A stretch of 63,617 nucleotides of DNA, counting the filler, from Stramenopiles sp. TOSAG23-6 (lineage: Eukaryota): the NCBI GenBank assembly GCA_900128565.1. It is 11 parts of 11 records of this genome, joined end to end, with 100 filler letters (N's around TTAATTAATTAA, not from the genome) between each part and the next. Parts side by side here need not be neighbours in the genome. Positions count along the whole stretch, not along the records: positions 1 to 5,703 come from LT636846.1; 10 more parts are not named here. The stretch is one strand, 5' to 3'. The translations under genes and the position numbers were made by a program. Shown one piece after another: positions 1-52,070 of this stretch. Position 1 is the first letter of the stretch. Each line of letters opens with the position of its first letter. The notes below the pieces were generated by a model. The model was given only the letters and a program-made list of their open reading frames with translations, was not told the origin of the DNA and ran no database searches.

Positions 1-45
1 TTTTTTGGTTTTTGGTTTTTTGGTTTTCGTACGAAATTTTGTACC

Positions 46-76
<31 letters not shown>

Positions 77-100
77 TTGAAATATTTTTCCAAAATATAT
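1..100 (+). mobile_element. Introner-family intron, 3' part (AT acceptor)
   Basis: TTTCGTACGAAATTTTGTACC core and ...AAATATTTTTCCAAAATATAT|G end; no AG before the conserved MPGYIH. Confidence 0.8.
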
Positions 101-879
101 GCCTGGATACATTCATCAAAAAGGTAAAATCGGTGTTGTGTCTCGCTCAGGGACGTTAACGTATGAAGCAGTACATCAAACAACAACAACAAATCTTGGC
201 CAATCAACTGTGGTTGGTATTGGAGGGGATCCGTTTAATGGTACTGATTTTATTGACTGCCTTGAACGATTTACGAATGATCCACAAACTGAAGTATGTT
301 TATATATATATGTTATGAAATTTTTTTTAGAAATTTTTTTTTTTAGAAATTTTTTTTTTTAGAAATTTTTTTTTTTTGAAAATTTTGTACCTAACAAAAA
401 TTATTTTTTTTTTAAATATTCTTTACACAACAGGGTATTATAATGATTGGTGAAATTGGTGGCGATGCAGAAGAAAAAGCGGCGGAATGGTTATCTGAAC
501 ATGGTGATCCAAATAAGCCTGTGGTTGGTTTTATCGCAGGTGTTACCGCTCCACCAGGACGTCGCATGGGACATGTATGTTGTTTATTCTACATTTGTGT
601 TTTTTTTTGAAAATTTTTTTTTTTGAAATTTTTTTTTTGAAATTTTTTTTTTGAAAATTTTTTTTGAAATTTTTTTTTTGAAATTTTTTTGTACCTAACT
701 TTTTTTTTTTTTTGAAATATTTTCTGAAAATAAATGCTGGGGCAATCATTGCAGGTGGAAAAGGTGGTGCTCCAGAAAAAATTGCAGCCATGAGAGCTAA
801 TGGTATTCATGTTGTGGACAGTCCTGCTATGCTTGGGGAGAAAATGTTGGAAGTGATGAAAGCAGCAGGAAAAGCTTAA
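99..879 (+). CDS. SUCLG1: Succinyl-CoA ligase alpha subunit, 5'-truncated; exons 101-293, 434-574, 736-879
   Basis: Motifs [37 protein letters not shown] and [13 protein letters not shown] (phospho-His loop); TAA at 877-879 is in frame after splicing. Confidence 0.97.
294..433 (+). mobile_element. Introner-family intron, GT-AG
   Basis: GAA|GTATGT...GTACCTAAC...ACAACAG|GGT restores DPQTE-GIIMIGE. Confidence 0.93.
575..735 (+). mobile_element. Introner-family intron, GT-AT
   Basis: CAT|GTATGT...GTACCTAAC...AAATAAAT|GCT restores RMGH-AGA; the next AG (753-754) is out of frame. Confidence 0.92.
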
Positions 880-1041: not shown

Positions 1042-4000
1042 TTAATTTGTTTTGAAATTTTTTTTTGGTTTGGTTGCAATAAGTAGTAAATTTTCTATAG
1101 AAATACATTCATTGACATATCGATGAAATTCTACACGAAATCCATGATTTTCTAAATATTGTCCTCGGCTAAAATCAATGAGCAATTTACAATTTCGTCC
1201 AAATTTTCGTCGTGAAGCTCTATCCAGTTCAAGATAATCTGCTGCATTTGTTAACGGGATTTTTTTTTCAGAATTTTTTGCTTCAGAATTTTTTGCTTCT
1301 GAATTTTTTGCTTCACAATTTTTTGCTTCACAATTTTTTGCTTCACAATTTTTTGTTAATGATAATGTAGCCCAACTACTTGCTTTTGCTACTATAGCTA
1401 CATCGTCTTTACTGAAATTATTATCTATAAAAAATTGTTTATTAATACATTGTTTGAAGTCCAAAAGATGATGACAACATGGAGTATGAAAAATATTTCA
1501 AAAAATCTAAAAAAAATTGTTAGGTACAAAATTTACTATAAAAAAAAACAAATTTGAAATTGAAATGAAAACGTACAGGAGCCAAGAACACAATTAATTT
1601 TATCATTTGATGTTTTTGTATGTTTTGTAATTAAATGTAAAGATAAATCAAAAGCTGGACCACATAAGTGTTTACTCATAAAGACAATATTCTTATTATT
1701 ATTAGTAGTAGTAATATCATTATTATTAGTATTATTATCATTATTAGTAGTAGTATTAGTATTATTAGTAGTAGTAGTTATAATATCATTATTATTATTA
1801 TTAGTAGTAGTATTATTAGTAGTAGTAATAATATTATTATTATTATTATTAGTAGTAGTAGTAGTAGTATTATTATTAGTAGTAGTTGTTGTTGTAATAT
1901 CACTATTATTATTATTAGTAATAATATCATTATTATTATTATTATTAGTAATAATATCATTATTATGATTATTATTATCAATATCATTATTACAGTTAAA
2001 CAAAAACTCTATTTCATTATTGAGTTGATTTTCCTGTATATGTTCTATATCATTGACAATCCTTCGAACATGCCCGCCATATATTTTATATTTATTAGAA
2101 TTTAAATACAATTCTTTGTTTAATTCTTTGTTTTTTGTGTTATTTAACATTTTAAATAGATTAATTCGATTTCTATTCATATCATTTTCAACTCTGGACG
2201 TTGACCGAAATTTCATTCTATCCACTAAAAGATAATTTGGTAATGAAATTATATTTTTTATATTTTTTGTATTTTTTGTATTTTTTGTATTTTTTGTATT
2301 TTTTGTATTGGAATCAATTAGACAAGCTGTATGAGAAGCAAGAAGAGGCATTGTACTATACGTATTCGATTCACTACAAAATGTATCTTCAATATGCATT
2401 ATTGCACCATACGTATCATTTTGTATTGCATTTAATATTGATGAGACTTTTATACTATACCTATATTGTTGAACATATTTAAAAAAAAAAAAGTGAAAAA
2501 AATGTTAGGTACGAATTTTCGTACGAAAAAAAAATTTAAAAAAAAAAAAATCATGATGAAAAAATACATTTCAGAATGGAATTCATTTCCATCAATATTT
2601 CTATATCCTCCAAATATAAATAGTTTATCATTAATCAGAGAGCATGTATGCGAAAATCTACCAACGCATGAAAAATTAGTAGTATTAATTTGATGATTCG
2701 TAGTAGTATCAATTTGATGATTCGTAGTAGTATTAATTTGATGATTAGTAGTAGTATCAATTTGATGATTCGTAGTAGTATTAATTTGATGATTATGATT
2801 AGTAGTATTAATTTCATTATCATCATCATCATTGTCTTGAAGTGATGATATTTTGATTCGTTTCCAAACTACAGAAATCGATTTTTTTTTTGTAGGGTTA
2901 GGGTTTTCACAATCATCTAAACACGAAATACAAAGAATCCAAATAAATTCTTGACCCATCACTTCATCTGCATTACGACCACCATACACTATGATATGTT
3001 TACTATTTGAATTTGAATGATTCGATTCTTTAACAGGTATAAATGTTGCTGAATGACGCCATCGAGGAGGTGGATTATTTCCTATACTATTTTGTAAGAA
3101 AATATTTGAAAAAAAAAAAAAAAAAAATTGTTAGTATGATTTTTTTTTTTTTGATTTTTTTTTGATTTTTTTGATTTTTTTTTTGATTTCAAAAAAACAA
3201 AAAATAAAAAAATTAATAAATTCATTCATGTTGAGATGAGATAACGTACACATTTGGTTGAATCCATTCAAAAGCAAATTCTGTATTTTTCATTTTTGTT
3301 ATTTTTGTTGTACATAAAATATGAACATCATTAAAAGCGCCTTGATGCGATGGAGATCGACGTCCCCCAAATATCACAGTATAGTTGACATTTACATCTT
3401 TAAATGAGCCAATGGACGTTGCAGTATGAAAAATACGTGGTAAAGGTTTCAATCCATTGATATTTTTTTTTTTGGACATTGAAATTGAAATTTCATTTTT
3501 ATTTCCTAGATGATTATTTTTGTTGTTATTATTTTTGTTGTTGATGACATTTTTTAAATTCGATTCATTCCATCTTTTGTCATGTCCATCGTTCGTTGAT
3601 ACTGAAAGTACAATGACGTCATTTAATTTTTTATTTCCTGATATGGAACCTTGACCTCCAAAGATAATTACAGAATCTTCACTTATAGAAGTCATTGAAT
3701 GGCCCCAACGTTGAGTATTCTTAGCCGTTTCATTATTTTCATCATTATTTAATATGGACACAGGTAACCATGATGGACAATCAATGGTTTTGTTTTTGTT
3801 TTTGTTACAATTTACATTTGTAATTGATTTCATATCTATGTTTTTTTTGTCAATGTTTACCTTTTTAATAGAACTCGAGTCTAAATGTGTATCATCATTT
3901 GCAATTGAATCCAAATCAATTGAATTCAAATCAAATTTTCGTCGATTATTCTCTAAAGTTGTGATTCCACTAGTTGTATTATGATTACAATGTTTTACTA

Positions 4001-4881: not shown

Positions 4882-5587
4882 ATGACATACTTGTCCTCCT
4901 CTATACTGTATACATCATTTATTACTGTCGTTGTCATCACTGCAGCAGCATCAAATGTTATAATTACGCCTTCTTCTTCTCCACCTGCTGATTCCGAGTT
5001 GGTTAAAGCAGTCAATCAAAAGAATATTGTTACTCTACGGAATTTGGTTACAAGGAAAGGAAATGTAAATTCTGTTGAGGAATATGGACGCTCAATTTTA
5101 CATCTTGCAATTGAAAACAAATGGACAGAGGGAGTCAAACTCTTGCTAGACAATGGAGCAAATATTGAGCAAGTGACAGACCATAGAGCAGGATTTCGTG
5201 CTGGAGAAACGGCACTTCACTATGCCGCAATCGCTGATAACTCTGAAATTATTGAAATGCTTTTGGGAATGGGTGCTAAAATGAATGTTTTCAACGATCA
5301 TGGGATGACAGCCATTCATCTTGCTTCGGGATTGGGCCGAGTCAATGCAATCAAAACAATGCTAGGTACAAATCGAGACGTCAAAGTTGACGTATCAAGC
5401 AAAAATGTATTTTTTTTTTAAATGAATTTTAATTTTTTTTTTTTTATACGAAAATTTGTACCTAACAAAAAAAAATTTTTTTTTTTAATATTTCTTCACA
5501 AAATAGAAGTATGAAAGTACACCGATTCATCTTGCTGCTGCATCACTCAATGAAGCAATCCCCGTGTTACAATTATTGCTTACTCAT
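4882..5587 (+). CDS. Ankyrin-repeat protein with N-terminal hydrophobic segment, 3'-truncated
   Basis: GRSILHLA, GETALHYAA, GMTAIHLA and STPIHLAA repeats; intron at 5407-5506; a second intron from 5588 runs into the contig end. Confidence 0.9.
5407..5506 (+). mobile_element. Introner-family intron, GT-AG
   Basis: AAT|GTATTT...GTACCTAAC...CACAAAATAG|AAG TAT keeps frame. Confidence 0.88.
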
Positions 5588-5703: not shown

Positions 5704-5803
5704 NNNNNNNNNNNNNNNNNNNNNNNNNNNNNNNNNNNNNNNNNNNNTTAATTAATTAANNNNNNNNNNNNNNNNNNNNNNNNNNNNNNNNNNNNNNNNN
5801 NNN
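5704..5803. other. Artificial contig linker N44-TTAATTAATTAA-N44; also at 11507, 17310, 23113, 28914, 34713, 40509, 46293, 52071 and 57847
   Basis: Identical 100-nt spacer with stops in all six frames, recurring at slowly decreasing intervals of about 5.8 kb (contigs sorted by length). Confidence 0.97.
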
Positions 5804-11423: not shown

Positions 11424-11683
11424 GTATGTATGTTTTATTTTTTTTTTTACAAAAAAATCGATTTTTTTTTCGTACGGAATTTTGTACCTAACAATTTTTT
11501 TTAGATNNNNNNNNNNNNNNNNNNNNNNNNNNNNNNNNNNNNNNNNNNNNTTAATTAATTAANNNNNNNNNNNNNNNNNNNNNNNNNNNNNNNNNNNNNN
11601 NNNNNNAAAAAAAAACTAAAATTTGTTAGGTACAAAATTTCGTATGAAAAATAAATTCGAAATTGAAAAAAGATAAAAGATAC

Positions 11684-14730: not shown

Positions 14731-15966
14731 TTACCAAATCGTTGACATTGTATTGTGTATTTCTGTATCTTCAACTGTTTGTTCGGACATATATCGCGTT
14801 GATGTGTTTTTCTTTTTTCTTACTTGTGCATTATTTTTGTGATTTATTTCGATAGCTTTTTGATAGTTCAACTCCCAATCAGTAATTAGCATAGAATATG
14901 CAAATGTATTCAAATTATTATTTGATGGCTTTAATGTTTTACTTTTCAAAGGAGAAACGTTTGACAAATTCGAAATTAAATGCGAATTTGTTTTCATAGA
15001 AACGTCTATTATACTACTACTACTTCTAGTTAACTCAATTGTTTGAGTATCATCTTTAGAATCTGTACTAATTTTACATTTTTTTGCCTTCATTCTCTCA
15101 CTATTACTATATTTACTATCTTCATTAGCATTCTCTATCATTTCTGTTTTTACTATAGAGTTGCTTCCTGGAGTGAAGGATTTACTAGGAAGAGGGTTAG
15201 GGTTAGGGCCACTTTTATATCCCGTCTGTCTTGCCAACAGAGCTATTCTTTTTGCAACGGTTGTATTATAATCCCGATATACTGCCCTAGCATGTCTCTT
15301 ATGTCTAATATCATCACACATCAATGTCTGCATTTCGTGTTGGTAATTTATTTCATCATGTATGTATTGTGAAAAAATATTGTAGAAAAATATTGTTAGG
15401 TACGGAATTTCGTACCAAAAAAAAAACAAATTCATCATGAAAACGTACAAAAAATGGTGGCTAACGGTATAAAATATATTCGTCGGGCGGAGAACTTTCG
15501 AGTATCTATACTGGAATTCACTTATATCTACAATTAAGTCAAAGTCGATAGCAAAAAGGAGTTGTACTTCTAAGGTATTCATTTGCTTGAGAGTTAAACC
15601 CCCAATTCTTGCAAAATCTTTGTTTGTAAAATGAACGTCGTCATTGAACTTTGCTGCAACAAGGACACTAGCAAGAATTGCAGTGTGAACATTTTCAGCT
15701 ATGATTCGATGATTGCAACTACGTTCTAAACGACTCACATAACAACTTGCGAGAATATATGATTCAAAACTACAACACGCATAAGTACAAATTCGAGAAA
15801 TGTATTTTTCCATGTTATAACCAACTATCGGCTTAACGTCTTTTTTTGTTTGGGCGTGGACAACATTATGTTTTCTTTGTGCGGCCATTTTCATCTGATG
15901 CATTCGAAGAGATATGCCACTCTCTATAGAACTCTGATATTCGTTATTAGTTATTCCCATTGGCAT
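14731..15966 (-). CDS. PHO80/cyclin-U(P)-like cyclin; in-frame intron 15362-15448
   Basis: YISRI..Y..CS, AAKFNDDVHFTNKDFARIGGL and MNTLEVQLLFAIDFDL. Confidence 0.88.
   Translation of the reverse strand: MPMGITNNEYQSSIESGISLRMHQMKMAAQRKHNVVHAQTKKDVKPIVGYNMEKYISRICTYACCSFESYILASCYVSRLERSCNHRIIAENVHTAILASVLVAAKFNDDVHFTNKDFARIGGLTLKQMNTLEVQLLFAIDFDLIVDISEFQYRYSKVLRPTNIFYTVSHHFLYVFMMNLFFFWYEIPYLTIFFYNIFSQYIHDEINYQHEMQTLMCDDIRHKRHARAVYRDYNTTVAKRIALLARQTGYKSGPNPNPLPSKSFTPGSNSIVKTEMIENANEDSKYSNSERMKAKKCKISTDSKDDTQTIELTRSSSSIIDVSMKTNSHLISNLSNVSPLKSKTLKPSNNNLNTFAYSMLITDWELNYQKAIEINHKNNAQVRKKKNTSTRYMSEQTVEDTEIHNTMSTIW
15362..15448 (-). mobile_element. Introner-family intron, GT-AT, 87 nt, stop-free
   Basis: TT|GTACGT...GTACCTAAC...CACAATACAT|A; phases match. 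Confidence 0.85.
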
Positions 15967-17220: not shown

Positions 17221-17410
17221 GTATGTTTTATTTTTTTTTCAATTTAGAATTTCTTTTCGTACGAAATTTTGTACCTAACGTTTTTTTTTTCAAATATTTT
17301 TCCAAAATANNNNNNNNNNNNNNNNNNNNNNNNNNNNNNNNNNNNNNNNNNNNTTAATTAATTAANNNNNNNNNNNNNNNNNNNNNNNNNNNNNNNNNNN
17401 NNNNNNNNNT

Positions 17411-18510
17411 GGATACCCGTTCCGTAGGAGCTTTACAGCAGATACAATCTTTTCGCCGGAAAGGCATTCCAGTCATCATTACTAATGGTTTTCAGGACTC
17501 TTTCTCGTCTTGGATAAAACAAGATGGTAGCCTCAATTTGGACTATCTATCCAAACTATTAGGGAATGAACACGTTCCTGTGAAAGTTTATCGTCAGACA
17601 AAGTATTGTGATGATTCTAGGAGTGAAAGTGCACGTTGTAGTGGCGCAAAAAAAGAAAGTATTGTACGTATGACATTTCAAGAATTTCTCAGTGGCTTTT
17701 GGATTCCAGGGAAGGAAAGTGGCTATCTACACCAATGGCAGTTTCCTTTATCAGAGACTGCAAACAAAAATATTCGGCATTTTGTTCCTAAAACTCAATT
17801 TTGTTCATGGGCGGAACCGGAACCTTCACTAATTTACATTGTGATAAGGGTGGCTTATCTATAATAATTGCTCCTATAGTTGGCACCAAAGAAGTTATTG
17901 CAGTTCATCGTAGTGATGGGAAGATCATGGGCTCTAGTCAGTCTTATAGTACATTTTCAAAATTATTTTTTTCACCTAAATGTTTTTTGTACCAAAGTTT
18001 GTACCTAATGAATATTTTTTTGAAATTTTTTTTTCACAAGTGTATGTGTACCTAGTAATCCATTAAAAACCAACTTGGTAACTCATCCACTTTTCGGTTT
18101 TGCTCGTTCCTGGAAATGCACAGTTATCCCTGGCGACATTTTGTTGATGCCTGCTGGGACTTATCATTCTGTGAAGAACAAAACGCCATGTTTCTCATAT
18201 CACCGTATGCACATTTTCATTATGAATTTCAAATTTATTTTTTTTTCATACGAAATTTTGTACCTAACAATTTTTTTTCGATTGTGTTTTTTTTTTTTCA
18301 CAATACATGCATCTGGATTCACTAAATTTGCCATGGCTATTTGATTCATACCGTCGATCTGAAGTCTGCGAAATTGATCATCCGTTGATCATATGGAATT
18401 TGACTCATGGAGTTATGAATCAAACTGATAATTGGTGTGAAAAAAATAGAAAAATAGATTTGAAACATAGAAATGACTTTCAGCAACAGCAACAAAAAAG
18501 TTTTTTTTGA
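17411..18510 (+). CDS. JmjC-domain protein, 5'-truncated, apparent frameshift near 17800; introns about 17949-18045 and 18209-18308
   Basis: GIPVIIT, YLHQW, FMGGTGTFTNLHCD (HxD) and PGDILLMPAGTYHSVKN. Confidence 0.8.
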
Positions 18511-19072: not shown

Positions 19073-21103
19073 ATGAATCAAGAACAACAAAATAACAGTG
19101 GTAAGAATGATTCGGAAATACAAGTGAAGCAAAAAAAGGTTAAAGAACTAAAGAAATTGTATCTGCAATGGGTTGACACCATGTCTTTGACTTTGTTTTT
19201 CATTGCCATATTCTTCATATGCGGGAATATAATGTCCCATCATAATCCTGACGGTCTTCCGGGCACTGGTGACGAATACCTTGGGAATATTGAATTGTTA
19301 AACAAAACAACAAATAATGCCATTCCAGAGTTAAATCAGAGAGGCCATGATTGCCTTTCCGTTTCACCTTTTCTTGGTAAACAAAATGGAACACTCGAAG
19401 GGGAGTGGGTATGGGTTGATGGGCTTGCGACTACGACAAGACTACTTGCTGGTGATACCCAACCCACTAAAGTAAATGTAACCGGTAAAATTGCAGTTGC
19501 AAATTTTGGGGCTTCTCTTGATCATAAACCTGAATTTGTGTGTTTTCATCATGATTTTTTTAACTAAATAATTGTTTGTACCAAAATTCGTACCTAACGA
19601 ATTTCGAATTCTAAAATTTGTTTTTCACAATACATGGTGGAGGATTTTTTTACTCACACCAAGAAATGATTCAACACTTACATTCCGAAGGGGCTATCGG
19701 CGGCTTAATCTTGGCAAATGATTTTACAATTGAGGGCATAGGCCAGGGCCAGGGTTTTCATACTCCATATGAGTATCTTGAAGTTGATCAACCTGATATC
19801 TTTTTGGTTTGGATTACGGACTTTTACTTATTTCCAGGTGCACCTACCCACAATGCGCCAATTCCAAAATACTTCTATGAAGAATTAGCCAAAAAGAGAG
19901 ACAAACTTTTTGTTGGTGAGAGTAAGATAAGAATAAGTATCTTTGAAGAAGATCAGAAAACAGGAATTGTCGCCAAAAATCCATTTTTATGGTGCCAAGC
20001 CCACATTCTTTTGCCTTTGATGGGCATGTGTGTAATGAAAGTAGGTTTTAATACATTGGACGAAATGAACTTAAAATCGAATGCGATAAATGCTCCACGG
20101 GTCTCAATTTGGCTTGCAATTTTCACCTGTGTACTTCATGTCATCAAATCGCCGATGCTTGGGGTGGGACTTTCGCACAGACACCTAGGAATTTGGGGTA
20201 GCGCTTATGGTTTTGGTTATAATTTCTTTAGTCCTTCCGGTGTAGCATTTTTCAATAATATCTTGGTCGGAATTTCTGTAATGGAACTAGTCAATGCTAC
20301 TAAGAGAATGAGAAAACAAGCTCAAATTTTTAAAAAGTACAGAACTACTCTAATAATATCATTTATATTGACAGTCCCTCCTCCTTTTGTCATAACTTTC
20401 ATTATGATACTTGGATTAATACCAATATATTATTTCGTAGTCTTTAGACTCTTTGAAGATACATTTGGAGGTTTTTTATCAGGTGTATATTTTGTTGTTC
20501 AATTTATGCGACTTCTTCAAGTTATGGGTGAAAAACAGAGGAAAATGAAATTAATGAGACGATCTCGAAATAAAAACAAAAAGAATGATAAACATTCTGC
20601 ACAAATGCTAAAGCTTCAGCATATGACGTATTGGCTTGGCATCAATGCATTTTTTCTACTTATTGCAACTATATTTAATTTAGGTACCTTCCTTCTATTT
20701 ACTGGTGATGGATATACTATGGAAACGTTCTCGCATGTTTTTTGGTATATAAGATATGTATTTCGAAAATCTATCGATGTAATCCTTGCATACTCAAAGA
20801 TTAGATTGTTTGATCAAAGTGGTTTTCATCGGCGTAAGACTATGTACGTTTTCATCATTCATTCCAAAATTTTACTTAAATTTATTTTTTTTCGTACCAA
20901 AAGTTTTTGTACCTAACGATTTTTTTAAACCAAAAAAAAAAAAAAATTCACAATAAATGGATAAAGTTGCCCAAACAATTTCAGGGAAAAGTCGACAGAT
21001 GTCTCGTATGCTCAGACTGTCACAACGTAAAACTGATGAACAAATAGTTAAAGAAACTAAATTATTGCTTCAGAAATCTCAAGCAAGTGAAGAAAAGGCA
21101 TAG
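19073..21103 (+). CDS. Multi-pass membrane protein with extracellular N-terminal region; introns 19538-19635 and 20844-20958 (both GT-AT)
   Basis: Three open exons join in phase (TTT|GTGTGT...TACAT|GGT; AT|GTACGT...CAATAAAT|G); about 7 hydrophobic segments. Confidence 0.75.
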
Positions 21104-23212: not shown

Positions 23213-24640
23213 CAAATATAAAGATTCTAATTGCATAGACCAAAAAAAGAAACAAAATGACAAAAAAGATTTCAATATTTGATAGATTATAACTTTTTCT
23301 TTCTAAACCTTCAATTATATCCCCACCGTTACCAAGACTGTATTTTGGAAAGATATTTCAAAAAAAAAATCCAATTTTTTTTTGTTTTTTTTGTTTTTTT
23401 TGTTAGGTACAAAATTTACTATGAAAAAAAAAAACGAATTTGAATAAAAATTAAAACATACATGATTCGAAATAAAGATGTATTTTGGAAAAATATTGTA
23501 CATGTATACTATTTGATTTAATAATGAAAAGATATGTATATATAATTTTAAAATTAAAAAAAAAAAAAAAATCAATGAAAAAAAACATGTTACCATAGAC
23601 TAAACTATTTTGTTTAAAAAAAAAAAAAAAAAAAAAAAAATCACAATGAAAAAATACATGTGCTCCCATATACAAAACTACTTAGCTGAGGTGTATATTT
23701 CCCTATTATAGCGACATAACAAATAACAACAGGATATAAGACGAATAGAATGAATAGAACAACTTTTGTGAGTTGTTTCGACCCAATTGAAATACTTTGT
23801 AATAATTCACTTATTGAAGAATTTGGGAATAATTTTGTAATTATTAAACAAATCACGTAAAATAAATATAATGTAATGAGATTTTGTTCAATGAGCAAAA
23901 AACTCGAAATATCATCTTGTGCCGTTGTAAAGGCTTCATTTCCAGATGTTGAACCTGCAGGATCAATAACTGTACATATAATGGATAATATATTTCAAAT
24001 TTCAATTTTTTTTTTGTTAGTAAAAAAAAATCAAATTTCAATTTTTTTTTTTTTTTTTTNTTAGTAAAAAAAAATCAAATTTCAATTTTTTTTTTGTTAG
24101 TAAAAAAGTATTTAGTTTGCAATGACAATAGGTAGTAGAGAGGATTAGAAGTACAGAACATATTTGAAAAAAAATTAAATGTTTTTTTTTTTTCGAAAAA
24201 AGTGTTGTATGAAAACCCTAACATGTACAAACAAACAAAAACGTACAAAATTTGTTTTCAAAAGGACACCCATAAATGATCTTACTTAATGACTCTAAAC
24301 TAATATTATTTTTTATCGATTTTCGTACGGCATTTTGTTGCACGCTGAGGTATAAAAATAATACTATACAAATGACATTGACTATATTGATTACATTGTC
24401 TAGTGTTATCAATTGCACAAGTCTCAAACATCGAATTGAAAATGCTTTAGGGTTAGGGTTAGTAAAGACCTTTTTTTTATACCATAGATTTATACTTTGA
24501 TATAATTGAACACATGAAATAAAACCTGCAGATAGTACTATAAAGAGTTGTAAGAAACCATAGCTTGTTTGAGATTCGACATCCATTTATTGTTTGAAGA
24601 TATATTTTGTAAAAAAATATTAGGTACAAAATTTCGTAGT

Positions 24641-25276: not shown

Positions 25277-28200
25277 CATTATTGGTCTGAAAATTTGTAT
25301 GATTTCGTGTGTTTTGTAGTATTGGTTGTGAACATTTTTTTTCGTGTTGAGTTGTAGTACTAGGGTTGGGGTTAGGGTTAGGGTTTGTTTCTTTGTTTTG
25401 TTTATCTACAGAAATAATTTTTGGTTGGATATGTAAAGGTAATGAACCTGGTGATGCTGTTAATTTAAAACCCGGTAACAACCCACCTACTTGGTCTTGC
25501 CAACCTCCTCCACTTGTCAATAATTGTTCTAATTGAAGAACAGCCTACATTTTTTTAAAATATTTCAAAAAAAAAATTAATATTTTTTTTGTTAGGTACA
25601 AAATTGACTACGAAAAAAAAAATTTAAAAAAAAAGTAAATTCAAAAAAAAAAAATTTTTAAAAATTTAAAAAATTACGAATGATAAATAAAACTATTACA
25701 CGTGTGACATACATGAAGCAAACTATTCATATCATACTTAATATCACAAACCTGTCCAATAGCTTGTAAGACACAACCTGCTAAAATAGAACTTGTACCA
25801 AGACCACTACCAACAGGTAATTTAGACCAACACGAAATCTCCAAACCACATCCAATTTTTTCCATTAATTGTGTTGCCAAAATATTTTGATTTTCATTTT
25901 CATTTTCAGTTTGATTAAAATTATGTTTTTTTTCATTTTTGTTTATTACTATTGGAGCATTGGTTTCACTAGAAGTAAGGTTTTCACTAGGGTTAGGGTT
26001 TATATTAATCAAACCACAGCTTATTACTGCTGCTTTAAGTAGTGCTGCTGGGGCTTGAGGTGTACAATAATCATATAACTGATTTATATGTGATATATTG
26101 ACTGTTCCTTTATGAGTATGGAATATAAGAACAGGTTTGTTCAAACGACGAATAGCTGCTCCACTATACTATTAAAAAATATATATAAATAAGATGTATT
26201 GATTTATTACAATGAATTTTCAAAAAAAAAAAAAAAAAAAAAAAAATTCAAATATTTTCAGAAAAAAAAAACAATTTTTAAAACAATTTTTTAAATTTTG
26301 TTTAAATTTTGTTTTGTATGTGTACTACACATACATTGGTCGAATAAACAGGTTTGTGTTTTTTTGTTGGATAAAATGTTCATTATCCCATTTACGCATA
26401 GTAATTGCAACGTTACATGTATTATGAAAAAGTATTTCTTCAAAAAAAAAAATCATATTTTTTTGTTAGGTACAAAATTTACTACGAAAAAAAAAATTAG
26501 AAAAAAAAAATTCAATTTTTAAAAACATACATACTAATCCACCATATTCAAATGTAATTGGAGGTGTATCTGTCCAACCTCCTGCTAAATCTATACGTGC
26601 ACCTGATTTCACAATGATCCAATGTTTGGATTGTTTGGATTGATCAAATTTGGATGGATCAAATATTTTTTTTCCACTTTTTTCGTGTTTTTTTATTTTT
26701 TCAATTTTTTCAATTTTTTCAATTTTTTCAATTTTTTCAATTTTTTCAATTTTTTCGTGTTTTTCTTTAAATTTGTTTGTTATAAAAACATCACAAGTTT
26801 TTACTGCCTGTTGAATTAACATTTGAGCAGCACCTTCATAATGCCTTGATGCACGAATGTTGTGTATAAAAAAATGTAAAAAATGTGTTTTTGTTAGGTA
26901 TAAAAATTTGTATGCAAAAAATGTAAAAATGTAAAAAAAATGTAAATTTTTTTTTTCTACAATTTAAAATGTAAAAAAAAAATTTAAAAAAATTAAAAAA
27001 AAAAAAAAAAACATACATTAATGANTTCGCATTATTCATCCATGAAACACGAATTCTAGACATTTTCTGAACAGATTGACGTCTCATTTGTTGTCCCTGG
27101 CATAAACCTGTGAAAGCTTCAGCCCATTGTGTATTTCGTGCATATAGTGTGTTATAATATTTCAATATAAAAAAACTAAAAAAAATTGAAATATTTAAAA
27201 AAAAAAAAAAAAATTGCAGTGATTCAAAAAATGATATATACTGGGCCTGATCGTAAGCCACCGCAATGATCGCATGTATATACTAGATATATTTACATTT
27301 TCTATTTGTTAGGTACAAGATTTTATTGTAAAAAAAAATCCAAATGTAAAATTAAAATTAAAAATTGAATGAAATTAAAAAAGTTGAAAAAAAAAAAAAA
27401 ACATGAAATTATACAAATTATACAAATAATAAAAATAGTACATAATCATGATACAAAACATACCATAACGACGTGATACATATCCAAATCGAGCAATTGC
27501 AGATAATAAATCAGCAATTTGGGCAAATGCTCTCGCAGAAATATCAACATCCTCATGACACGAAATCTCGTCCAAAATTGGAAAAATACGAGAAAATGTG
27601 TTGTATTGAGCTGCATGTTTATATATATCGGATAATTCAATATGTTTACGATGTAGTAAAACATGTTTCATCTTTGCTATACCAATTGTAGTATAAATTT
27701 GTGTACGGTGTTTGAATATTTTTTTTAAATTTGCATTTTCAAGAATTTCGTATAATGAAGTTTTTTCACAAGATTGCCACGTGTCAAAAGATTTTTGTAT
27801 TTCATCATGACTTAATTTTTGTACTGGACGAGAAAAGTCTAAAAGCCATTGAATTGGTTCAATAGAAATATCTTGATTTTCATGAAATATTGGAAAAAGT
27901 AATGCATGAAGAAGATTTTGTTGATTTTGTTTCTTTTTTAACCCTAACCCTAGTGGCCAAATGTCATTCATGGAACAAAACTGTCCACAATACTCAAAAA
28001 ATGTTGACCATAATTTTCCCATAAATTTTCCATTGTTTTCCATTGAAATTAACCAAGAATCATTTATACCAGTACAAACCAATACTTTACAGTCATTATC
28101 AATTGGTATTTCTTGTATACATGTTTTCGAAGGAATTTCAAATTGAATAGGATGATGTAAAGATAATCCAGAAATGATGCAATGTTGTCCAATTGTTAAA

Positions 28201-29066: not shown

Positions 29067-31186
29067 ACCGGAAGCAAATTGAGTTGTTGCATCAACATCT
29101 TTCACGGTGACAGATGTACTGCCTTTGGTAAAAGATCCATCTACTAAAACTCCAGTATTTGTTTTCGTAACACTAACATTCACTTCATCAATGGAATCGA
29201 GTAACTCTAGTGTTGTTTTTACTGTAACGGGTGTTGCATCAAAGGATATATTGGATGTAGTTTGTGAATAGTTACTACCTGTGAATGATATCGTAAATGT
29301 TCCACCCGTAGCATCACAAGTTAATGTTTGCTCTTCATTTTTCTGCCCAATGGTTATTGGATCATCCCCAGATGGACAAGTCTGAAGTTCACATTTATAA
29401 CCATAAAAATCAGAGAATTCACCTTTAAAAGGGCCATGCCACTGTCGCGTTTTGCAACTACAACCTCGTATCATATCAGCATCCCATGAATTTTGACTAT
29501 CTCCATAAGAAACACTATTTAAATTGGCTAAAGAGCGCATACTCAAACATTCACCTGAAGCAGCGGATGCATCTTTGTCAGTAACACCAGCACCAGTACA
29601 TATATGTAAATTATTGTCAGAGAAACATCGAAGTAATTCACATGCATTTCCTTCAAAAGGACCATCACATATACATTTCCCAGTTGCTCTATCACACTCT
29701 CCACGATTAGAACATTCCCATTCTCCATTTGCAGAAAATGTATGTGCTTGGTCAGACGAGGACGGTTCAGCAAACCACGGTTTACCTGTTGGACATTTTT
29801 TATGTTGACAAAACACACCTGAATAACCACCATCACAGACACATGAATATCCTGTAGTAAAATCACAGAATCCATGTCCCCAGCAGGGTAATGTGGGTCG
29901 CATGGAGAAAAGAAAAATATTTTACATTCGAAATTTCGTTAGGTACGAAATGTAGTACAAAAAAAATAAATTTGAAATTCAATTTTGAAAACGTACATCC
30001 TTTGATCATACGGAACTGGGCAATTGTCAGTTGATGCAATTTGACTCTTGTTATAATAACCACAATCACCAACAGTTCCTTCACCACCGGCACCATCCGA
30101 TGATGCAAAACCTGTAAAACATACGCACCCCCCACTGGTACAATATCCACGTATTGTGAAAAATATTTCAAAAAAAATTCGTTAGGTACGAAATTGCGTA
30201 TGAAAACCAAAAAAAAAAATTGAATTAGAAATTCATATAAAACATACACGACCACTACACATTATCCGCTCTCTAGTCCCTGTTGTATCTGGAGTTGTAT
30301 TGATTGTTGCAGAGCCTGTTAGTACTTCAGTATATAGAGGAGGATGAGTTCCAGGATTATGAGTAAATGTTATTTTTGATATAGCACCACCCGATGCGCA
30401 TATAGCGCTACCTCCTGATGTTATACTAACAGTTACTTCTGGAATATTTGCTAAATTTTCCAAGGCTGCTTTTAAATCAGACGCTGTAGCATCACCCGCT
30501 ATTCCTGAAGTTTTTTTACCTCGAAAATTAAGCGTGAAACTTGCACTTGAAGGAACTGCTGAAGTACATTCAATCTGCTGAATCTCGTTTACCTGAGACA
30601 TAGTGAACGGATCATCTCCGAAGGGACAATCTATTTGCAATGAACAGTCGTAGCCTTCTCGACCCTCATCACAAACGCAGCCATAGATCATATCAGCATC
30701 CCAGGGCGTTGAATAGTTGATCCCCAATAAATTCAAATGATTTCCATCAAATTCAGCACCAGCTTCACGCATAGAACGACACTTACCATATCCATTACAG
30801 ACTTTACCGTCCTCGTTGCGTGGACAAGAAAGGCGTTGACACGCTGAACCTTCGAAACCATTTTCACACTTGCACGTTCCAGTTGTTCTATCACAAGTAC
30901 CCATATTACTACACTCTACCCCACTTTGATGAGCGACGTTGGTTTGACTAGCAGAATCTGCCCAGCTTTTACCTGTTGGACAAGCACGTAGAGAACAATC
31001 GCTTCCATGCCAACCGTGTTCACATTCGCATGTTCTGTTCGTGGAACAGTATCCGTGACCACTGCACTTTGTAACGATGCAGTGTGCATAGGCTTTTGGA
31101 AGGGCAGTAGAAAATAAAGAAACTAGAAATATAAAGTCGATGATGCATGCAACAAACACACTTGATTTATGTGTGGATGGCGTCAT
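29067..31186 (-). CDS. Secreted EGF-repeat protein, 3'-truncated; introns 30149-30247 and 29902-29996
   Basis: Signal peptide; CSGHGYC, ECSNMGTCDRTTGTCKC, WDADMIYGCVCD and CPFGDDP modules occur twice. Confidence 0.9.
29902..29996 (-). mobile_element. Introner-family intron, GT-AT
   Basis: AGG AT|GTACGT...CTCCAT|G CGA keeps frame. Confidence 0.82.
30149..30247 (-). mobile_element. Introner-family intron, GT-GT (or GT-AC in the shifted register)
   Basis: CGT|GTATGT...CACAATACGT|GGA TAT TGT restores the EGF motif CSGRGYC. Confidence 0.85.
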
Positions 31187-31665: not shown

Positions 31666-33347
31666 TTACTCTTGTTTTTCAATTTGTTCTATTAATATAT
31701 CATGTCTTAATGATGAATATAACAGATTCCAAACAAGAAGTAGTATAAAAACAATATAAAATGAAGCAGGCAAAATGGCTCTGATATATTCCACATACGA
31801 CTGAACTTCTATTTCTTTTTCTGCAGCCTCATGCTCTAGTTCCTTTACAAGCTCTTCTATTTCTGATGCAAGTAAATCGTCTGAATTTTGTATTTGTTTT
31901 ATCTCATCCTTGTGCTGATTTAAAAGGAAATGAACTCGTGTCACAAGAAAAATAATCGTGAGTGAAGTTAAAAAGCATAAAATCAAAATCCAATGCATCC
32001 ACAATAATGAAGTAACTGGAGGCATTGTACCTGTATTCATACCACCAACAAAAGTCATTGTGGTAAGAAATGCAAATGATGCTGTAGCAATCTGTGCACT
32101 AAAGTGATCATGATGTGATATAAATAGTGAACCTAAAGCCATGGATAAAATAAACCAAAGAGGAACCAACGTATTGCTCACTGGACCCCAGTATTGACGT
32201 GTTACTACAATTGCACCGATCACAAAGCCATCATCTTTCCCTCCATTGAACATGGATGGTTCATTCGTATTGCGTACCGCATATTTACCAGGTGACCATG
32301 CTGTATTTTTTCTTGGTTTTCGTGTTCCTGGTGGATTGTATCCTTTGAGTGAAAGCTCATCTGGTCCATATCTAAATGAGGATAATTTTACTTGAACAAG
32401 TTGTTCATCAAATGGATACCCCCATAAATCAAAATTAACAATAACCTTGACATTCATCCTTTGAACCAACTTGAGATGCCCCTTTTCATGAAAAAGACTT
32501 TCTGTATGAATCTCGGATGGATGAGCTTTGTTACGTGCTTCGATTCCAGGAGTCCATGTACAGTGAAACATTATTTCAAAAATTTGTTTTTTTTGTTAGG
32601 TACATAATTTACTATGAAAAAATAAATTCGGAATTAAAATGATGAAAACGTACATGCAGGCCAACCCTCTTCCGTCATATGAATAAAACCTCTATACTCA
32701 ACATACTCTAAACGCGGATCAAACCATTCTGATTTAATAAGAATATCTAAATCTGCTTGTTGTATTGCCTGATTAATTCCCTGAAATTGCACGAAATCTA
32801 GTCCAACATTAATTACATCTATTTTGCCACTTTTTTTGCTTGGACGATCTTCTGGGTTATAGTGGAGAGGAAAATACATGCCTTCTTCACGAGAAAATGC
32901 CTCGGGAACCATTCCATCAGTCAAGATCTCAGTACCATTTTGATCAGCATTTTTTTGTATAGAAGACTGTTTTTTTTCAGCGGCAACTGCCAAAATATCA
33001 TCAAAATTATATGTTGGTTTTTGTGTTTTGTTTTGAACGTTTCCCTGATTGGTATTCATCACTGTTGCATTCGGTGAAGCAAATCGAAAGTTACCTTTGT
33101 TATTTTCATGTTTTCCTGTATCATGTTGTGACTTTTGTTTGTGCCCAGAATGCTCTGGACGATGTATCCCCGTAGGATTTGTAATCAAGCGCCGTTTATG
33201 TGGTTGTTTCACAAGCAAACTCTCTTCTTCTTCTTTGACCTCTAGAAAGCTCCGTAATTGTTTGGGTTCATCCGCTACAGTAGCTGACGCTGTATAATGT
33301 AAAGAGTATTGTAATAGAAGAATGAATGCGACTTTTGTGTTCAACAT
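31666..33347 (-). CDS. Pentameric ligand-gated ion channel subunit lacking the Cys-loop cysteines; intron 32556-32653
   Basis: Signal peptide, YNPEDRP, EWFDPRL, WTPGI, FDLWGYPFDEQ and four transmembrane helices. Confidence 0.85.
32556..32653 (-). mobile_element. Introner-family intron, GT-AT
   Basis: GCA T|GTACGT...CTGTACAT|GG ACT CCT restores the conserved WxP. Confidence 0.87.
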
Positions 33348-33737
33348 TATCTTTTTCAATGTTGTTATTATTTCTTGTGAATAATTAGAAGAATTACGAG
33401 AATTAATTAGGCTGTTCGATTTGAATTTTGTGTGATAGAAAATTAATCTCATTGTGCCCCTCCAAAGAAAAAATATTTTTTGAAAAAGAATTTTGAATTT
33501 CTCCTTTCAATTTTGGAACAAACCTGTCATCATTTCAGTTAAATTATTATTATTATAATTTAATTGAAATTTTAAAACAGCTCTATATTACTATGACAAA
33601 AAGATTTCACAAAGAGAAAAGTTCAATTCATCGAGACTTGATCAAATTTCAACAGGATTGATTTAAATAAGTTGTTATTCAACCAAAAAGAAAGATATAG
33701 GAAACATATTTATTTCTAGTATAAAGAGAAAAAAAAA

Positions 33738-38657: not shown

Positions 38658-40508
38658 ATGGCGAAAAAGAAGGGAGGGAAGGGAAAGGGAAAGGGAAAGA
38701 AGAAGAAGAAGAAGAAGAATAGTTCTGATAAAAATGATGTTGATTCAAAAGAAAAAGGCGATGGTGAAGAATGGAAAACCAAGGGGTTTGTACGTTTTGT
38801 TCCCGAGGAAGAAGACAAACCGAAACCAAAACCTTCTAAACCAATCAGTGAAATGAAGACACACGAACGCATACTCCATCGAAAGACTTATCTTCCTTTG
38901 CCTCGGTTCTCAATTAAATCTAGAGAAACCGCCGCAGTGACAATCAGATGGACTGAGGTTTCTCAGCATAATACTGACAAGATGGGTCAGATAAAGAGTT
39001 TAAAACGTTTAAGAAATTTAGGACTCAGTGAACGATCTGACTTGCAAGACCAACATTATGATGATGCGGCAACAGAGGTAAGAAAGAAAAGTAAGCAAAT
39101 GCACATAGGGATATCCTCTGCTTTGAGCAATGGTTCAAATAATAGGAAAATTCCCCATAGAGAAGATGGATTATTTTTATCTCCTCGGGACTCATATGTA
39201 CTTTTTAATTATGAATTTTTTTTTTTTTTTTTTGGTAGAAAATTTTGTACCTAACGATTTTTTTTTTTTGAATATTTTTTAACAATATATCTTCATAAAT
39301 GTCGTTTAGCACGGGTCGCACCCCGACCTTCGATATTTACAAAAACGTCACCAATTGCGCATAGATCGGTTCTTATGGATAAAAGTTTAAAGTACCAAAA
39401 TGCATTGCTTGGAGTGGATCAAATATCTGCACTATGTGGTGCAATTGAGGAAGTACAAGATATGCAAGTGAGAACTTTATCCTTAGCAAACAACCGCATG
39501 TACGTTTTTATTATTTTTCAAATCCGAATTTGTTTTCGTACGACATTTTGTACCTAACGATTTTTTTTGAAATATTTTTCCAAAATACATCGATCACGTT
39601 GGCTGTCGTCTTCTAAGTACTTCTCTATATCAGCATCATGCATTAATGAATATAGATCTATCTGGGAATCCAATAGGCACGAAAGGCATGGGTTATCTTG
39701 TTCATGTTTTAGAAAGTAATCATCTACATCAGATCAATTTTGCATCATGTATGTTTTCATTGTGAATTTTAAATCTATACTTTTTGTACCAAATTCCCAT
39801 ACCTAACGATTTTCAATGTAACATTTTTCTACAATACATGCTCACTCACTGACGATGCTATTGTAACGCTTTGTCAGGTACTTTTTCGAACTCACTCGGT
39901 GAGACAATTAAATTTGAGTGGTAATACATTCGGGGTACACGCCTGTTCCGCTGTTGCAAAACTAGTTGCCGCATCGACCATTTCGAGTCAATTGAGGTTA
40001 ATGGAATTAAAAATATCCGATAATAAAATTCCTCCGGTGGGTCTTTGTAAGATATTTTTAGCTCTTTCATTAAATGAAACACTACAAGTGTTGGATATTA
40101 GTTTAAATTCTCTCAGTGGTCGTGAATCACGTCACTATAAACATTTACTTCCTGTACTTGATTTGGATGCATACAAGAAGTTTCCAGTGGAAAGAGGATT
40201 TGGTCCAGTTTGGGATAAAATATCATCAGAAGATTCTGAAGTGTCTGAAGGAAAGAAATTAAAGAAAAACGATGGAAAGGATAAAGATAAAAAGAGTTCA
40301 ACAGCAGGAAAAGGGGGGAAAGGCAAAAATGGTGATGATAGTATCAAAGCTTTACGAGCAAAAAATCTAGAAAATAAGCGAATTCATGGACCATGTATGT
40401 TTAATTTTTTTTTTAATTTCAATTTTTTTTCGTACGAAATTTTGTACCTAACATTTTTTTTTTTTGGAATATTTCTCCAAAATACATAGGCGTGGAGGAT
40501 ACAATTTC
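38658..40508 (+). CDS. Leucine-rich-repeat (RI-like) protein, 3'-truncated; family introns 39198-39290, 39500-39590, 39749-39839 (GT-AT) and about 40395-40489
   Basis: Splicing restores LSLANNRI|DHVG and INFASC|SLTD; further LRRs DLSGNPIGTKG and LNLSGNTFG. Confidence 0.85.
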
Positions 40509-41315
40509 NNNNNNNNNNNNNNNNNNNNNNNNNNNNNNNNNNNNNNNNNNNNTTAATTAATTAANNNNNNNNNNNNNNNNNNNNNNNNNNNNNNNNNNNN
40601 NNNNNNNNCCCCCCCCCCCCCCCCCCCCCGCAGAATCATACTTGACAGGACATGAAAGAAGATATTCATAGCAAAAGAAGGAAAAAGAAGGCGAAAAGAA
40701 ACGACAATTGAAGTGGTACGGTTAGAATTCGTAGGAAAATTTGTACCTAAGGAATGGTACAGTTAGAATTTACAGATTTCGTGTTTTTTGGTACACTTAG
40801 AATTCCGTACCATTTTGGTACAAGACTAGACCCCTTTTATATATGGAGTAACCTGTGGCGGCTACCCCCCAGACGGGCTCTACACAAAATCCGCTATTTC
40901 AAAATGAATTTTTAATAATTTCCTTAATTTAAAGAAAAAATATTTCCATAGAGTTCTCAGAATCGCTTCATTTAGTTCAAGATAATAATACGTCATATAT
41001 TTCTGATTTTAGCTGAAAATGCCACATCATTGGTATATAATACCTTCTAAAACTGGCGCTGCAGCAGTGGATTGCAAACTTTTAGATTTTTTTGTACTTA
41101 TTTTTTTTTGGTATGAAAAAGTGGTACAGAATCCAAAGATACGCTACTACTGCTTTTAATTAATAATGGAATTCCATTCGCAAAAGGAGAACTTGTAGAA
41201 ATTCACCTATTTTTAGAGCACAAAAAAGCAGGTGATGCTCATAGACTGACTTTCACTGTTCATAACTAGTTTCAGTCTTTTTTATAATGCAAATTACAAA
41301 GATGTCAATGTTATT

Positions 41316-51312: not shown

Positions 51313-52070
51313 TTATGAATGTGAAACTGGGGGTGGAGGCCCCTTCATTTCTGATTCATCGACTGGTTTAATACCATGAAAACGATCATAATTAATATGA
51401 CATGCACCTTTAATTCTTTGAACACAACTGACAAAATCATGATCCCAAAAAACTTCACATTGACCTTTTTTATCGAATTTATCTTCAACGTATTGTGAAA
51501 AATTATTTAAAATTTTTTTTTGAAAATTCGTTAGGTACAAAATTTCGTATNNNNNNNNNNNNNNNNNNNNNNNNNNNNNNNNNNNNNNNNNNNNNNNNNN
51601 NNNNNNNNNNNNNNNNNNNNNNNNNNNNNNNNNNNNNNNNNNNNNNNNNNNNNNNNNNNNNNNNNNNNNNNNNNNNNNNNNNNNNNNNNNNNNNNNNNNN
51701 NNNNNNNNNNNNNNNNNNNNNNNNNNNNNNNNNNNNNNNNNNNNNNNNNNNNNAAAAAGGTCAATGTGAAGTTTTTTGGGATCATGATTTTCATCTTTTT
51801 TTTTAGAATGTACATTTAAATGTACATTTAAATGATTTATTGAAGAATGTTTCACTTGTTGATATTCGACACCACCTTGTTCACCTTCTTTTTCAATATG
51901 TCTTTGTAAACATTCTTTAGAAGGAAAAGGTTCTCCATTTGTAGTACTAATGGTTTGAACATCATGTACTGTGAAATATATTGTGTTTTTTTGTTAGGTA
52001 CAAAATTTTTCAAAAAAAATAATTCGATTTTTTTGTAAAAAAAAAAATAAAACATACATGCCCACTAATT
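51313..52070 (-). CDS. Hypothetical protein, 3' fragment; family intron 51964-52057 and a second one ending CAATACGT| near 51489
   Basis: Open frames flank the family introns; interrupted by an N gap. Confidence 0.45.

Follow-up and report, generated by a model that had tools for sequence, protein, structure and literature searches.

In Stramenopiles sp. TOSAG23-6, the gene for the alpha chain of succinyl-CoA ligase (SCS-alpha) is split at its active-site loop by an intron which, in the register preferred here, begins with GT and ends with AT. From its sequence features we consider it probable that this is a real major (U2)-type spliceosomal intron, and that its exact removal at 574/736 is needed for a working enzyme. 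The intron belongs to a family of look-alike introns. For the family as a whole we lean, with less assurance, toward a broader reading, in which the major spliceosome of this lineage has re-specified its 3' site. Splicing at CAT^ (the caret marks a splice border) instead of CAG^ would then be routine for about 70% of the family's copies, and the last two bases of each intron would be a copied target site.

The window, meaning the whole 63.6-kb stretch of DNA that was analysed, has the composition of AT-rich eukaryotic DNA. It is made up of 11 pieces of 5,671-5,703 bases, placed in descending size and joined by N44-TTAATTAATTAA-N44 spacers (at 5704-5803, 11507-11606, 17310-17409 and onward). 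The pieces are separate, so genes on different pieces are not neighbours. The first contig (1-5703) carries the SCS-alpha gene at its left edge. Its best protein match is the public gene model of the same locus, eukprot:GSMAST32.ASY1.ANO1.720.1, and PF00549 and PF13607 are the precomputed Pfam domains of the locus gene model. All of the nearest named homologues come from stramenopiles: Tetraparma, Triparma, Lagenidium, Chrysoparadoxa, Nitzschia and a pelagophyte. The nearest relative, P0006, is an uninterrupted single protein of 322 aa, and 149 of the 159 residues encoded by the three exons are identical to it. All three exons are open in frame. The features of the locus are as follows.

1 to 100, plus strand: 3' part of an upstream family intron, with motif TTCGTACGAAATTTTGTACC and tail GAAATATTTTTCCAAAATATAT; the contig starts inside it
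99 to 293, plus strand: SCS-alpha exon, MPGYIHQKG...NDPQTE, 61 of 65 residues identical to P0006
294 to 433, plus strand: intron 1 of SCS-alpha, a canonical family copy with GTATGT, the 9-mer at 387-395, and an ACAG end
434 to 574, plus strand: SCS-alpha exon 2, ending APPGRRMGH; its last codon, CAT (572-574), is the catalytic His
573 to 574, plus strand: exonic AT, by sequence a direct repeat of the last two intron bases, 734-735
575 to 735, plus strand: GT..AT intron (preferred register), 161 nt, 12% G+C, containing no AG
575 to 580, plus strand: 5' splice site GTATGT, directly after ATG GGA CAT (the last codon being 572-574)
609 to 690, plus strand: six tandem GAAA(A)T(7-11) units, in a copy longer than the usual 87-115 nt
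691 to 699, plus strand: branch-site-like 9-mer GTACCTAAC, with the presumed branch A698 lying 37 nt before the intron end
700 to 735, plus strand: T14 tract (700-713), then the family 3' motif GAAATATTTTCTGAAAATAAAT (714-735), ending AAAT
736 to 879, plus strand: last SCS-alpha exon (exon 3), starting GCT GGG GCA and ending KAAGKA, with stop codon TAA at 877-879
753 to 754, plus strand: first AG downstream of the 5' splice site, used as acceptor by the public gene model together with a donor at 597-598

Should the upstream intron end at 100, the first codon of the exon at 99-293 may be split as AT^G.

Exons 2 and 3 together encode the CoA-ligase domain with its phospho-histidine loop, GRRMGHAGAI, and this domain is contiguous when compared with solved structures. 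In all 16 solved SCS-alpha chains that match both exons, the two adjoin at residues n and n+1: exon 2 aligns with residues 212-260 of 6g4q_A and exon 3 from 261, while in 1jkj_A exon 2 aligns with 203-246 and exon 3 from 247. The aligned histidine (246 in E. coli numbering) we take to be the phosphorylated residue of SCS-alpha. MGH followed by AGAI and then I, V or M was present in 116 of 120 homologues. The original prediction had the intron splitting RRMGH^AGAII exactly at the phospho-histidine loop, with the motif encoded as ATG GGA CAT^GTATGT...^GCT GGG GCA. The contiguity of the 16 PDB chains bears out the placement, and the sequence at 572-580 and 736 agrees with the coding.

Apart from its end, the intron at 575-735 has the anatomy of a U2-type intron. 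It has a 5' GT with an extended consensus, and a branch A motif followed by a pyrimidine tract; in place of the 3' terminal AG it ends AAAT. The branch site was assigned by motif alone and is a prediction. The 3' motif GAAATATTTTCTGAAAATAAAT aligns with the family 3' consensus GAAATATTTTTCCAAAATACAT, so that the terminal AT (734-735) occupies the family's terminal column. The six tandem GAAA(A)T(7-11) units account for the unusual length of the intron. Tandem (A)GAAAT(n) units are seen in both complete SCS introns, four in the one at 294-433 (140 nt) and six in the one at 575-735.

No AG occurs anywhere in 575-752. To enumerate the possible canonical splices, every GT or GC donor in 520-735 was paired with every AG acceptor up to 870, and 0 of 64 in-frame, stop-free pairs kept GHAGAII. 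For the GTATGT donor the sole in-frame AG is at 839-840, and its use would cost 35 codons. Joining 574 to 755 loses 19 exon bases and shifts the frame, and this junction is not among the in-frame pairs. If the intron is retained, a stop codon follows 13 codons past the His. It had been claimed that no AG lies between the branch motif at A698 and the exon, and that the first downstream AG would delete AGAII and shift the frame; both statements proved correct, with use of that AG (753-754) removing AGAIIA. The further claim, that precise non-AG splicing is needed to keep the invariant motif, holds at the level of the sequence, where the enumeration offered no alternative.

The public model of the locus, P0003, maps to donor GT597 and acceptor AG754. 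It swaps the seven residues of the near-invariant AGAIIAG for eight intron-encoded ones, VCCLFYIC. This splice looks like the output of a predictor restricted to GT-AG borders, not like biology, and the same kind of damage is probable in other gene models of the organism. Comparison of exon 2 with longer proteins and of exon 3 with proteins of similar length turned up no transcript-derived protein that is identical over 574/736. The short protein matches are gene-caller fragments beginning at the M of RRMGH. Measured by word content alone, the share of sampled words was 0.71 for two DNA runs of one organism, 0.11-0.20 for seawater metagenomes, and 0.06-0.09 for three seawater metatranscriptomes, two of them polyA.

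The intron at 575-735 is one of many. The 9-mer occurs at 32 sites in the 11 separate contigs of the window against 0.19 expected, a count reached in 0 of 100 shuffles, and nearly all of these sites lie between open reading frames. The 5' motif ATGTAYGTTTT was found 16 times in the window (0.40 expected). The 3' motif CAMAATACAT was found 13 times (0.97 expected), and its AG version, CAMAATACAG, once (0.54 expected). An alignment of 19 copies yielded a common consensus in three blocks, with AT^GTAYGTTTT at the 5' end, TTCGTACGAAATTTTGTACCTAAC in the centre, and GAAATATTTTTC[C/A]A[A/C]AATACAT^ at the 3' end. The 5' site is yeast-like, either GTATGT or GTACGT. The branch motif is long and invariant (TTTTGTACCTAAC), and it is followed by a T tract and a conserved 3' tail which usually ends ACAT, not ACAG. 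Two further blocks, CGTACGAAA upstream of the branch motif and GAAATAT within the tail, are also conserved in the alignment, and no signal function is known for them. Within the window, 13 of 22 contig ends fall inside family elements; such breaks would be what short-read assembly does at a high-copy repeat. Three family members are in view in the SCS gene: those at 294-433 and 575-735, and the partial one at 1-100, which has no AG in 1-98 and ends in AT whether its border is placed after 97-98 or after 99-100.

Two other places in the window touch on the family. In a fucokinase-like gene, the intron at 26330-26170 (minus strand) starts AT^GTATGT, carries no 9-mer and has an apparent AATAG end; its AT flank shows that this exon flank extends beyond exact family copies. 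Two family introns are separated at 23462-23477 (minus strand) by 16 bases, CTTTATTTCGAATCAT, with the ACAT that closes the first on one side and the GTATGT that opens the second on the other; this stretch is a possible micro-exon, probably of a 5' UTR.

For 24 of the 32 copies both ends are readable; in the other 8 an end is hidden by a spacer or a run of N. The borders of the 24 were curated by hand from the family alignment and the reading frame, and they form one 63.6-kb sample. The 5' end is GT in all 24. The 3' end is AT in 17, AG in 5, GT in 1 and TG in 1, and the AT ends divide into ACAT (11), AAAT (2), CCAT (2), ATAT (1) and GCAT (1). The second copy that ends AAAT, beside the one in SCS-alpha, is at 20844-20958. 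Across the family the branch A lies 30-65 nt before the 3' end. Only the curated phase gives long open frames to either side of the junction in 12 of the 24 copies (10 AT, 2 AG). Two phases are open in 9 copies, the remaining 3 are at contig ends or in UTR, and the frame test excludes none of the 24. Taken from sequence in this way, the census suggests that the organism probably splices by a relaxed 3' rule.

Several junctions could be compared with protein structure or domain coordinates, and two copies that the frame test had left ambiguous, those at 30149-30247 and 5407-5506, were decided in this way. The intron at 30149-30247 (minus strand) has an ACGT end, and its junction restores the C-x3-G-x-C spacing of three other EGF repeats in the same protein, a spacing that shifts of +/-3 break. 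A second family intron ending ACGT is at 51510-51538 (minus strand), with its 5' part in an N run. Pfam coordinates of the open reading frames flanking the intron at 1479-1576 are continuous only to within one profile position, and those of the Cys-loop receptor exons fit an ACAT junction only by extrapolation; a comparison of the Cys-loop receptor exons with the PDB gave no match, nor did a protein search with the TRM13 exon. The intron at 5407-5506 was read as GT-AG by way of a weak Ank match of the exon at 5507-5587 (E 0.016). At 27273-27463, CATG^ and ATAC^ ends are both in frame, and for the introns at 18205-18308 and 26417-26530 another phase gives a longer downstream frame.

The exact register of these introns has to be considered together with a direct repeat at their borders. 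AT forms the last two exon bases before the intron in 17 of the 24 curated copies, and overall it precedes 20 of 40 GTAYGTT sites, against a background AT frequency of 0.10. The exon flank is identical to the intron end in 15 of 24 copies, and in 13 of those both are AT. The informative copies are few; in two of them the intron end follows a flank that departs from the consensus, with a CGT flank and an ACGT end at 30149-30247 and ATAT on both sides at 39198-39290. The repeat is not universal, because the flank is also AT in four of the five AG-ending copies, and four AT-ending copies have unmatched flanks (CC, TT, TT, CT). In the SCS-alpha intron the repeat extends by one base, with G575 equal to G736 and AT 573-574 equal to AT 734-735, and four borders therefore yield one mRNA. 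The GT-AT label of the original prediction stands as the most parsimonious register but not as the only one that fits, since AT..AA, TG..AA, GT..AT and TA..TG explain the mRNA equally; all four are non-canonical. The GT..AT register is preferred because under it all copies start GT and 22 of 24 end AT or AG, because the five GT-AG copies have the same architecture, and because AT..AC borders are impossible at CT or TT flanks.

That last point bears on a different account, in which the cuts fall two bases upstream. The family would then have AT..AC borders (ATGTAYGT...AATAC), the 575-735 copy would be AT..AA, and splicing would draw on the known compatibility of A and C as first and last intron bases. 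With AT on both borders in 13 of 24 copies either register gives the same mRNA, and the family consensus itself would read AT-AC. This shifted register nevertheless seems improbable to us. GTATGT is a textbook pairing site for U1 and U6, which fixes cleavage before its G, and the five GT-AG copies share the family architecture in the GT register. Read two bases upstream, the 5' ends would vary (AT, TT, CT, GT, CC) and so would the 3' ends (AC, AA, AT, GC, CC), and AT..AC is impossible for the intron at 1479-1576, with its CT flank, and for those at 15362-15448 and 19538-19635, with TT flanks. AT-AC, AT-AA and AT-AT borders are themselves known in other organisms, as described in PMC1557818 and in a preprint on Physarum. 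A minor-spliceosome (U12-type) intron with a non-canonical GT-AT border is the least likely reading of all: Table 2 of PMC1557818 records GT-AT as a non-canonical U12 border, with 7 cases, and ACCTAAC is similar to the U12 branch consensus, but a U12 5' site would be [AG]TATCCTT where the family has GTATGT or GTACGT, and a U12 branch motif would be expected about 10-20 nt from the 3' end, whereas the branch A of this intron lies 37 nt away. It is also very unlikely that the locus is spliced canonically from GT597 to AG754, or not at all, so that it yields a crippled protein while a functional SCS-alpha is encoded elsewhere. The public model does read through GT597-AG754, but the three exons are open and match the nearest relative closely, the residues that P0003 replaces are near-invariant among the 120 homologues, and GTGTTT at 597 lacks the family 5' consensus; moreover, unrelated genes have such non-AG ends as well, and it cannot be that all of them are dead. 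We give hardly any credence to a base error at 735, or to an element whose removal takes place in the DNA instead of the RNA. Single N's do occur in this fragmentary assembly, but 17 independent copies end AT, the T-ending 10-mer outnumbers the G-ending one by 13 to 1, and the elements carry full spliceosomal signals.

A euglenid-type nonconventional intron, which has no conserved borders and has its ends drawn together by a stable helix, was ruled out by the regular borders and the weak pairing of the ends, and an Amoebophrya-style hairpin intron was ruled out by ends that pair only through GUAU/AUAC. Rfam and tRNA scans of 900-63617 found nothing.

The origin of the family can be approached through related loci. 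A metagenome scan with P0006 kept 80 loci, the best of them 78% identical, and none is from this organism or a close relative. In the 12 related loci examined, chosen from the 80, the three SCS intron positions are interrupted in none, and 4 of the 12 have an intron elsewhere, near residue 41. As the positions are uninterrupted in all 12 relatives, the SCS introns are lineage-specific gains. The look-alike copies would suit an introner-like family derived from a transposon, and so would the border repeat, the contig breaks and the blocks conserved beyond the splice signals. Not every mark of a transposon is there: the inverted repeat is weak, some copies lack the border repeat, and no autonomous element was seen in the window. 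The terminal inverted repeat consists only of GTAT...ATAC, and in most copies internal windows have pairing energies at least as good as that of the ends; this part of the signature is thus weak. The uniformity of the family might instead reflect long and strict splice signals of the lineage, not mobile copies, with AT as the 3' consensus. We judge this unlikely, though it deserves more weight than any of the alternatives above. Its strengths are that the conserved blocks coincide with the 5' site, the branch site and the 3' tail, that the terminal inverted repeat is weak, and that no transposase or intergenic copies are shown. On the other hand, conservation reaches the two blocks that have no known signal role, the three SCS intron positions are not common to the 12 relatives, the intron end tracks the differing flanks at 30149-30247 and 39198-39290, and contigs break inside family elements. 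A strict-signal origin would leave the main point about the 3' end unchanged.

Under the preferred, introner-like reading, the family would be highly repeated and lineage-specific, and would have spread by transposition. Insertion of a small transposon-like introner would duplicate a short target site, and one of the two copies would become the 3' border, giving AT^GTAYGT...AT^, with the terminal AT as the duplicated target site. The strong signals at the 5' site and the branch would be read by U1/U6 and U2, and once the branch has formed, the second step would use the A-T that closes the conserved 3' tail, with cleavage in the GT..AT register. A final U in the intron blocks that step of splicing in model organisms. 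The 3' site recognition of this host would have to tolerate U as the last base, and its spliceosome, in the second step, would accept A-T or occasionally G-T where A-G is the rule.

Strict yeast-type introns have the form GTATGT ... TACTAAC ... YAG. The family resembles this consensus in its 5' hexamer, which is the same, in its branch motif, which is closely similar, and in its distance from branch to 3' end; it differs in the extra C of its branch motif (TACCTAAC) and in ending YAT where yeast has YAG. Transposon-derived introns with border repeats and non-canonical ends have been described in Fritillaria, Amoebophrya, Polarella and euglenids (PMC11282704, PMC7789003). In the tunicate Fritillaria borealis, introns derived from MITEs mostly escape the GT-AG rule and take their 3' border from a short exonic repeat (PMC11282704), AC and AT 3' ends are used by a modified major spliceosome (PMC11282704; PMC13326754), and divergent U2AF paralogues bind the non-canonical 3' ends (PMC13326754). 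As described there, Fritillaria has non-AG ends like the present family, which would also share with it a 3' border from an exonic repeat. Its 5' end, according to the same descriptions, is also non-canonical (AG-AC, AG-AT) and its repeat is TAC, whereas this family, in a stramenopile protist, has hyper-canonical 5' and branch sites and deviates only at the 3' end. By analogy, a change like that of the Fritillaria U2AF would be the first candidate mechanism here.

The introners of the dinoflagellate Amoebophrya are repeated elements with direct repeats that overlap the borders, terminal inverted repeats and non-canonical borders (PMC7789003). According to the available text of that source, their inverted repeats are hairpin-forming and 8-20 nt long, the border dinucleotides show no preference, and a search for U1 snRNA came up empty; in the present family, by contrast, the ends pair over about 4 bp and the borders are regular (GT, mostly AT). 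The introners of Micromonas pusilla and Aureococcus anophagefferens are short look-alike introns thought to spread as DNA transposons, in which the element brings one splice site and the target-site duplication supplies the other (PMC11282704). These are described as canonical GT/GC-AG introns, while in this family the co-opted repeat would be AT, and so is the end. GT-AT introns have been seen before: DGCR2 has a U2-type one conserved between human and mouse (PMC1557818), and GT-AT is also found among non-canonical U12-type introns (PMC1557818; Physarum preprint). In those accounts the animal and Physarum cases are isolated, in single genes or under 1% of introns, whereas AT is the majority end in this family. 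A systematic introner survey is described as having discarded families with unfamiliar splice sites unless they were confirmed by transcripts (PMC12130899). Literature searches brought up no report of AT-ending introns in marine stramenopiles, and the words 'splice' and 'canonical' are absent from the available text of PMC5778133.

The other open reading frames of the window are those of ordinary eukaryotic genes, among them SART-1, CLP1, TYW3/Kelch, a cyclin and teneurin-like EGF proteins. Open reading frames that match the TRM13 methyltransferase family and lie downstream of the TYW3/Kelch ones carry, at 1680-1980 and 1261-1345 (minus strand), long runs of in-frame ATT/AGT repeats (Asn/Thr-rich) and a 15-base tandem repeat. 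At 31666-33506 (minus strand) there are open reading frames that weakly match the ligand-binding domain of neurotransmitter-gated (Cys-loop) ion channels. The contig that begins at 40609 does so with a run of 21 C (40609-40629), probably an assembly or amplification artefact.

Few signals in eukaryotic gene expression are as strongly conserved as the terminal AG. The known wholesale AG-breakers (Fritillaria, Amoebophrya, euglenids), as far as the available descriptions of them go, scramble the 5' site as well. A lineage with perfect 5' and branch signals, in which only the last base has changed, would isolate how the second catalytic step reads the 3' end. The family would also add a stramenopile case of intron creation by transposon insertion with target-site duplication. 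The practical cost is that GT-AG-only annotation seems to have mis-built at least this one active-site loop, in P0003; other gene models of the organism and its relatives are likely also damaged, and hence the metabolic inferences drawn from them. If the preferred reading is true, GT-AT would be a standard intron class in this lineage, which would then offer a natural system where only 3' splice-site recognition has changed.
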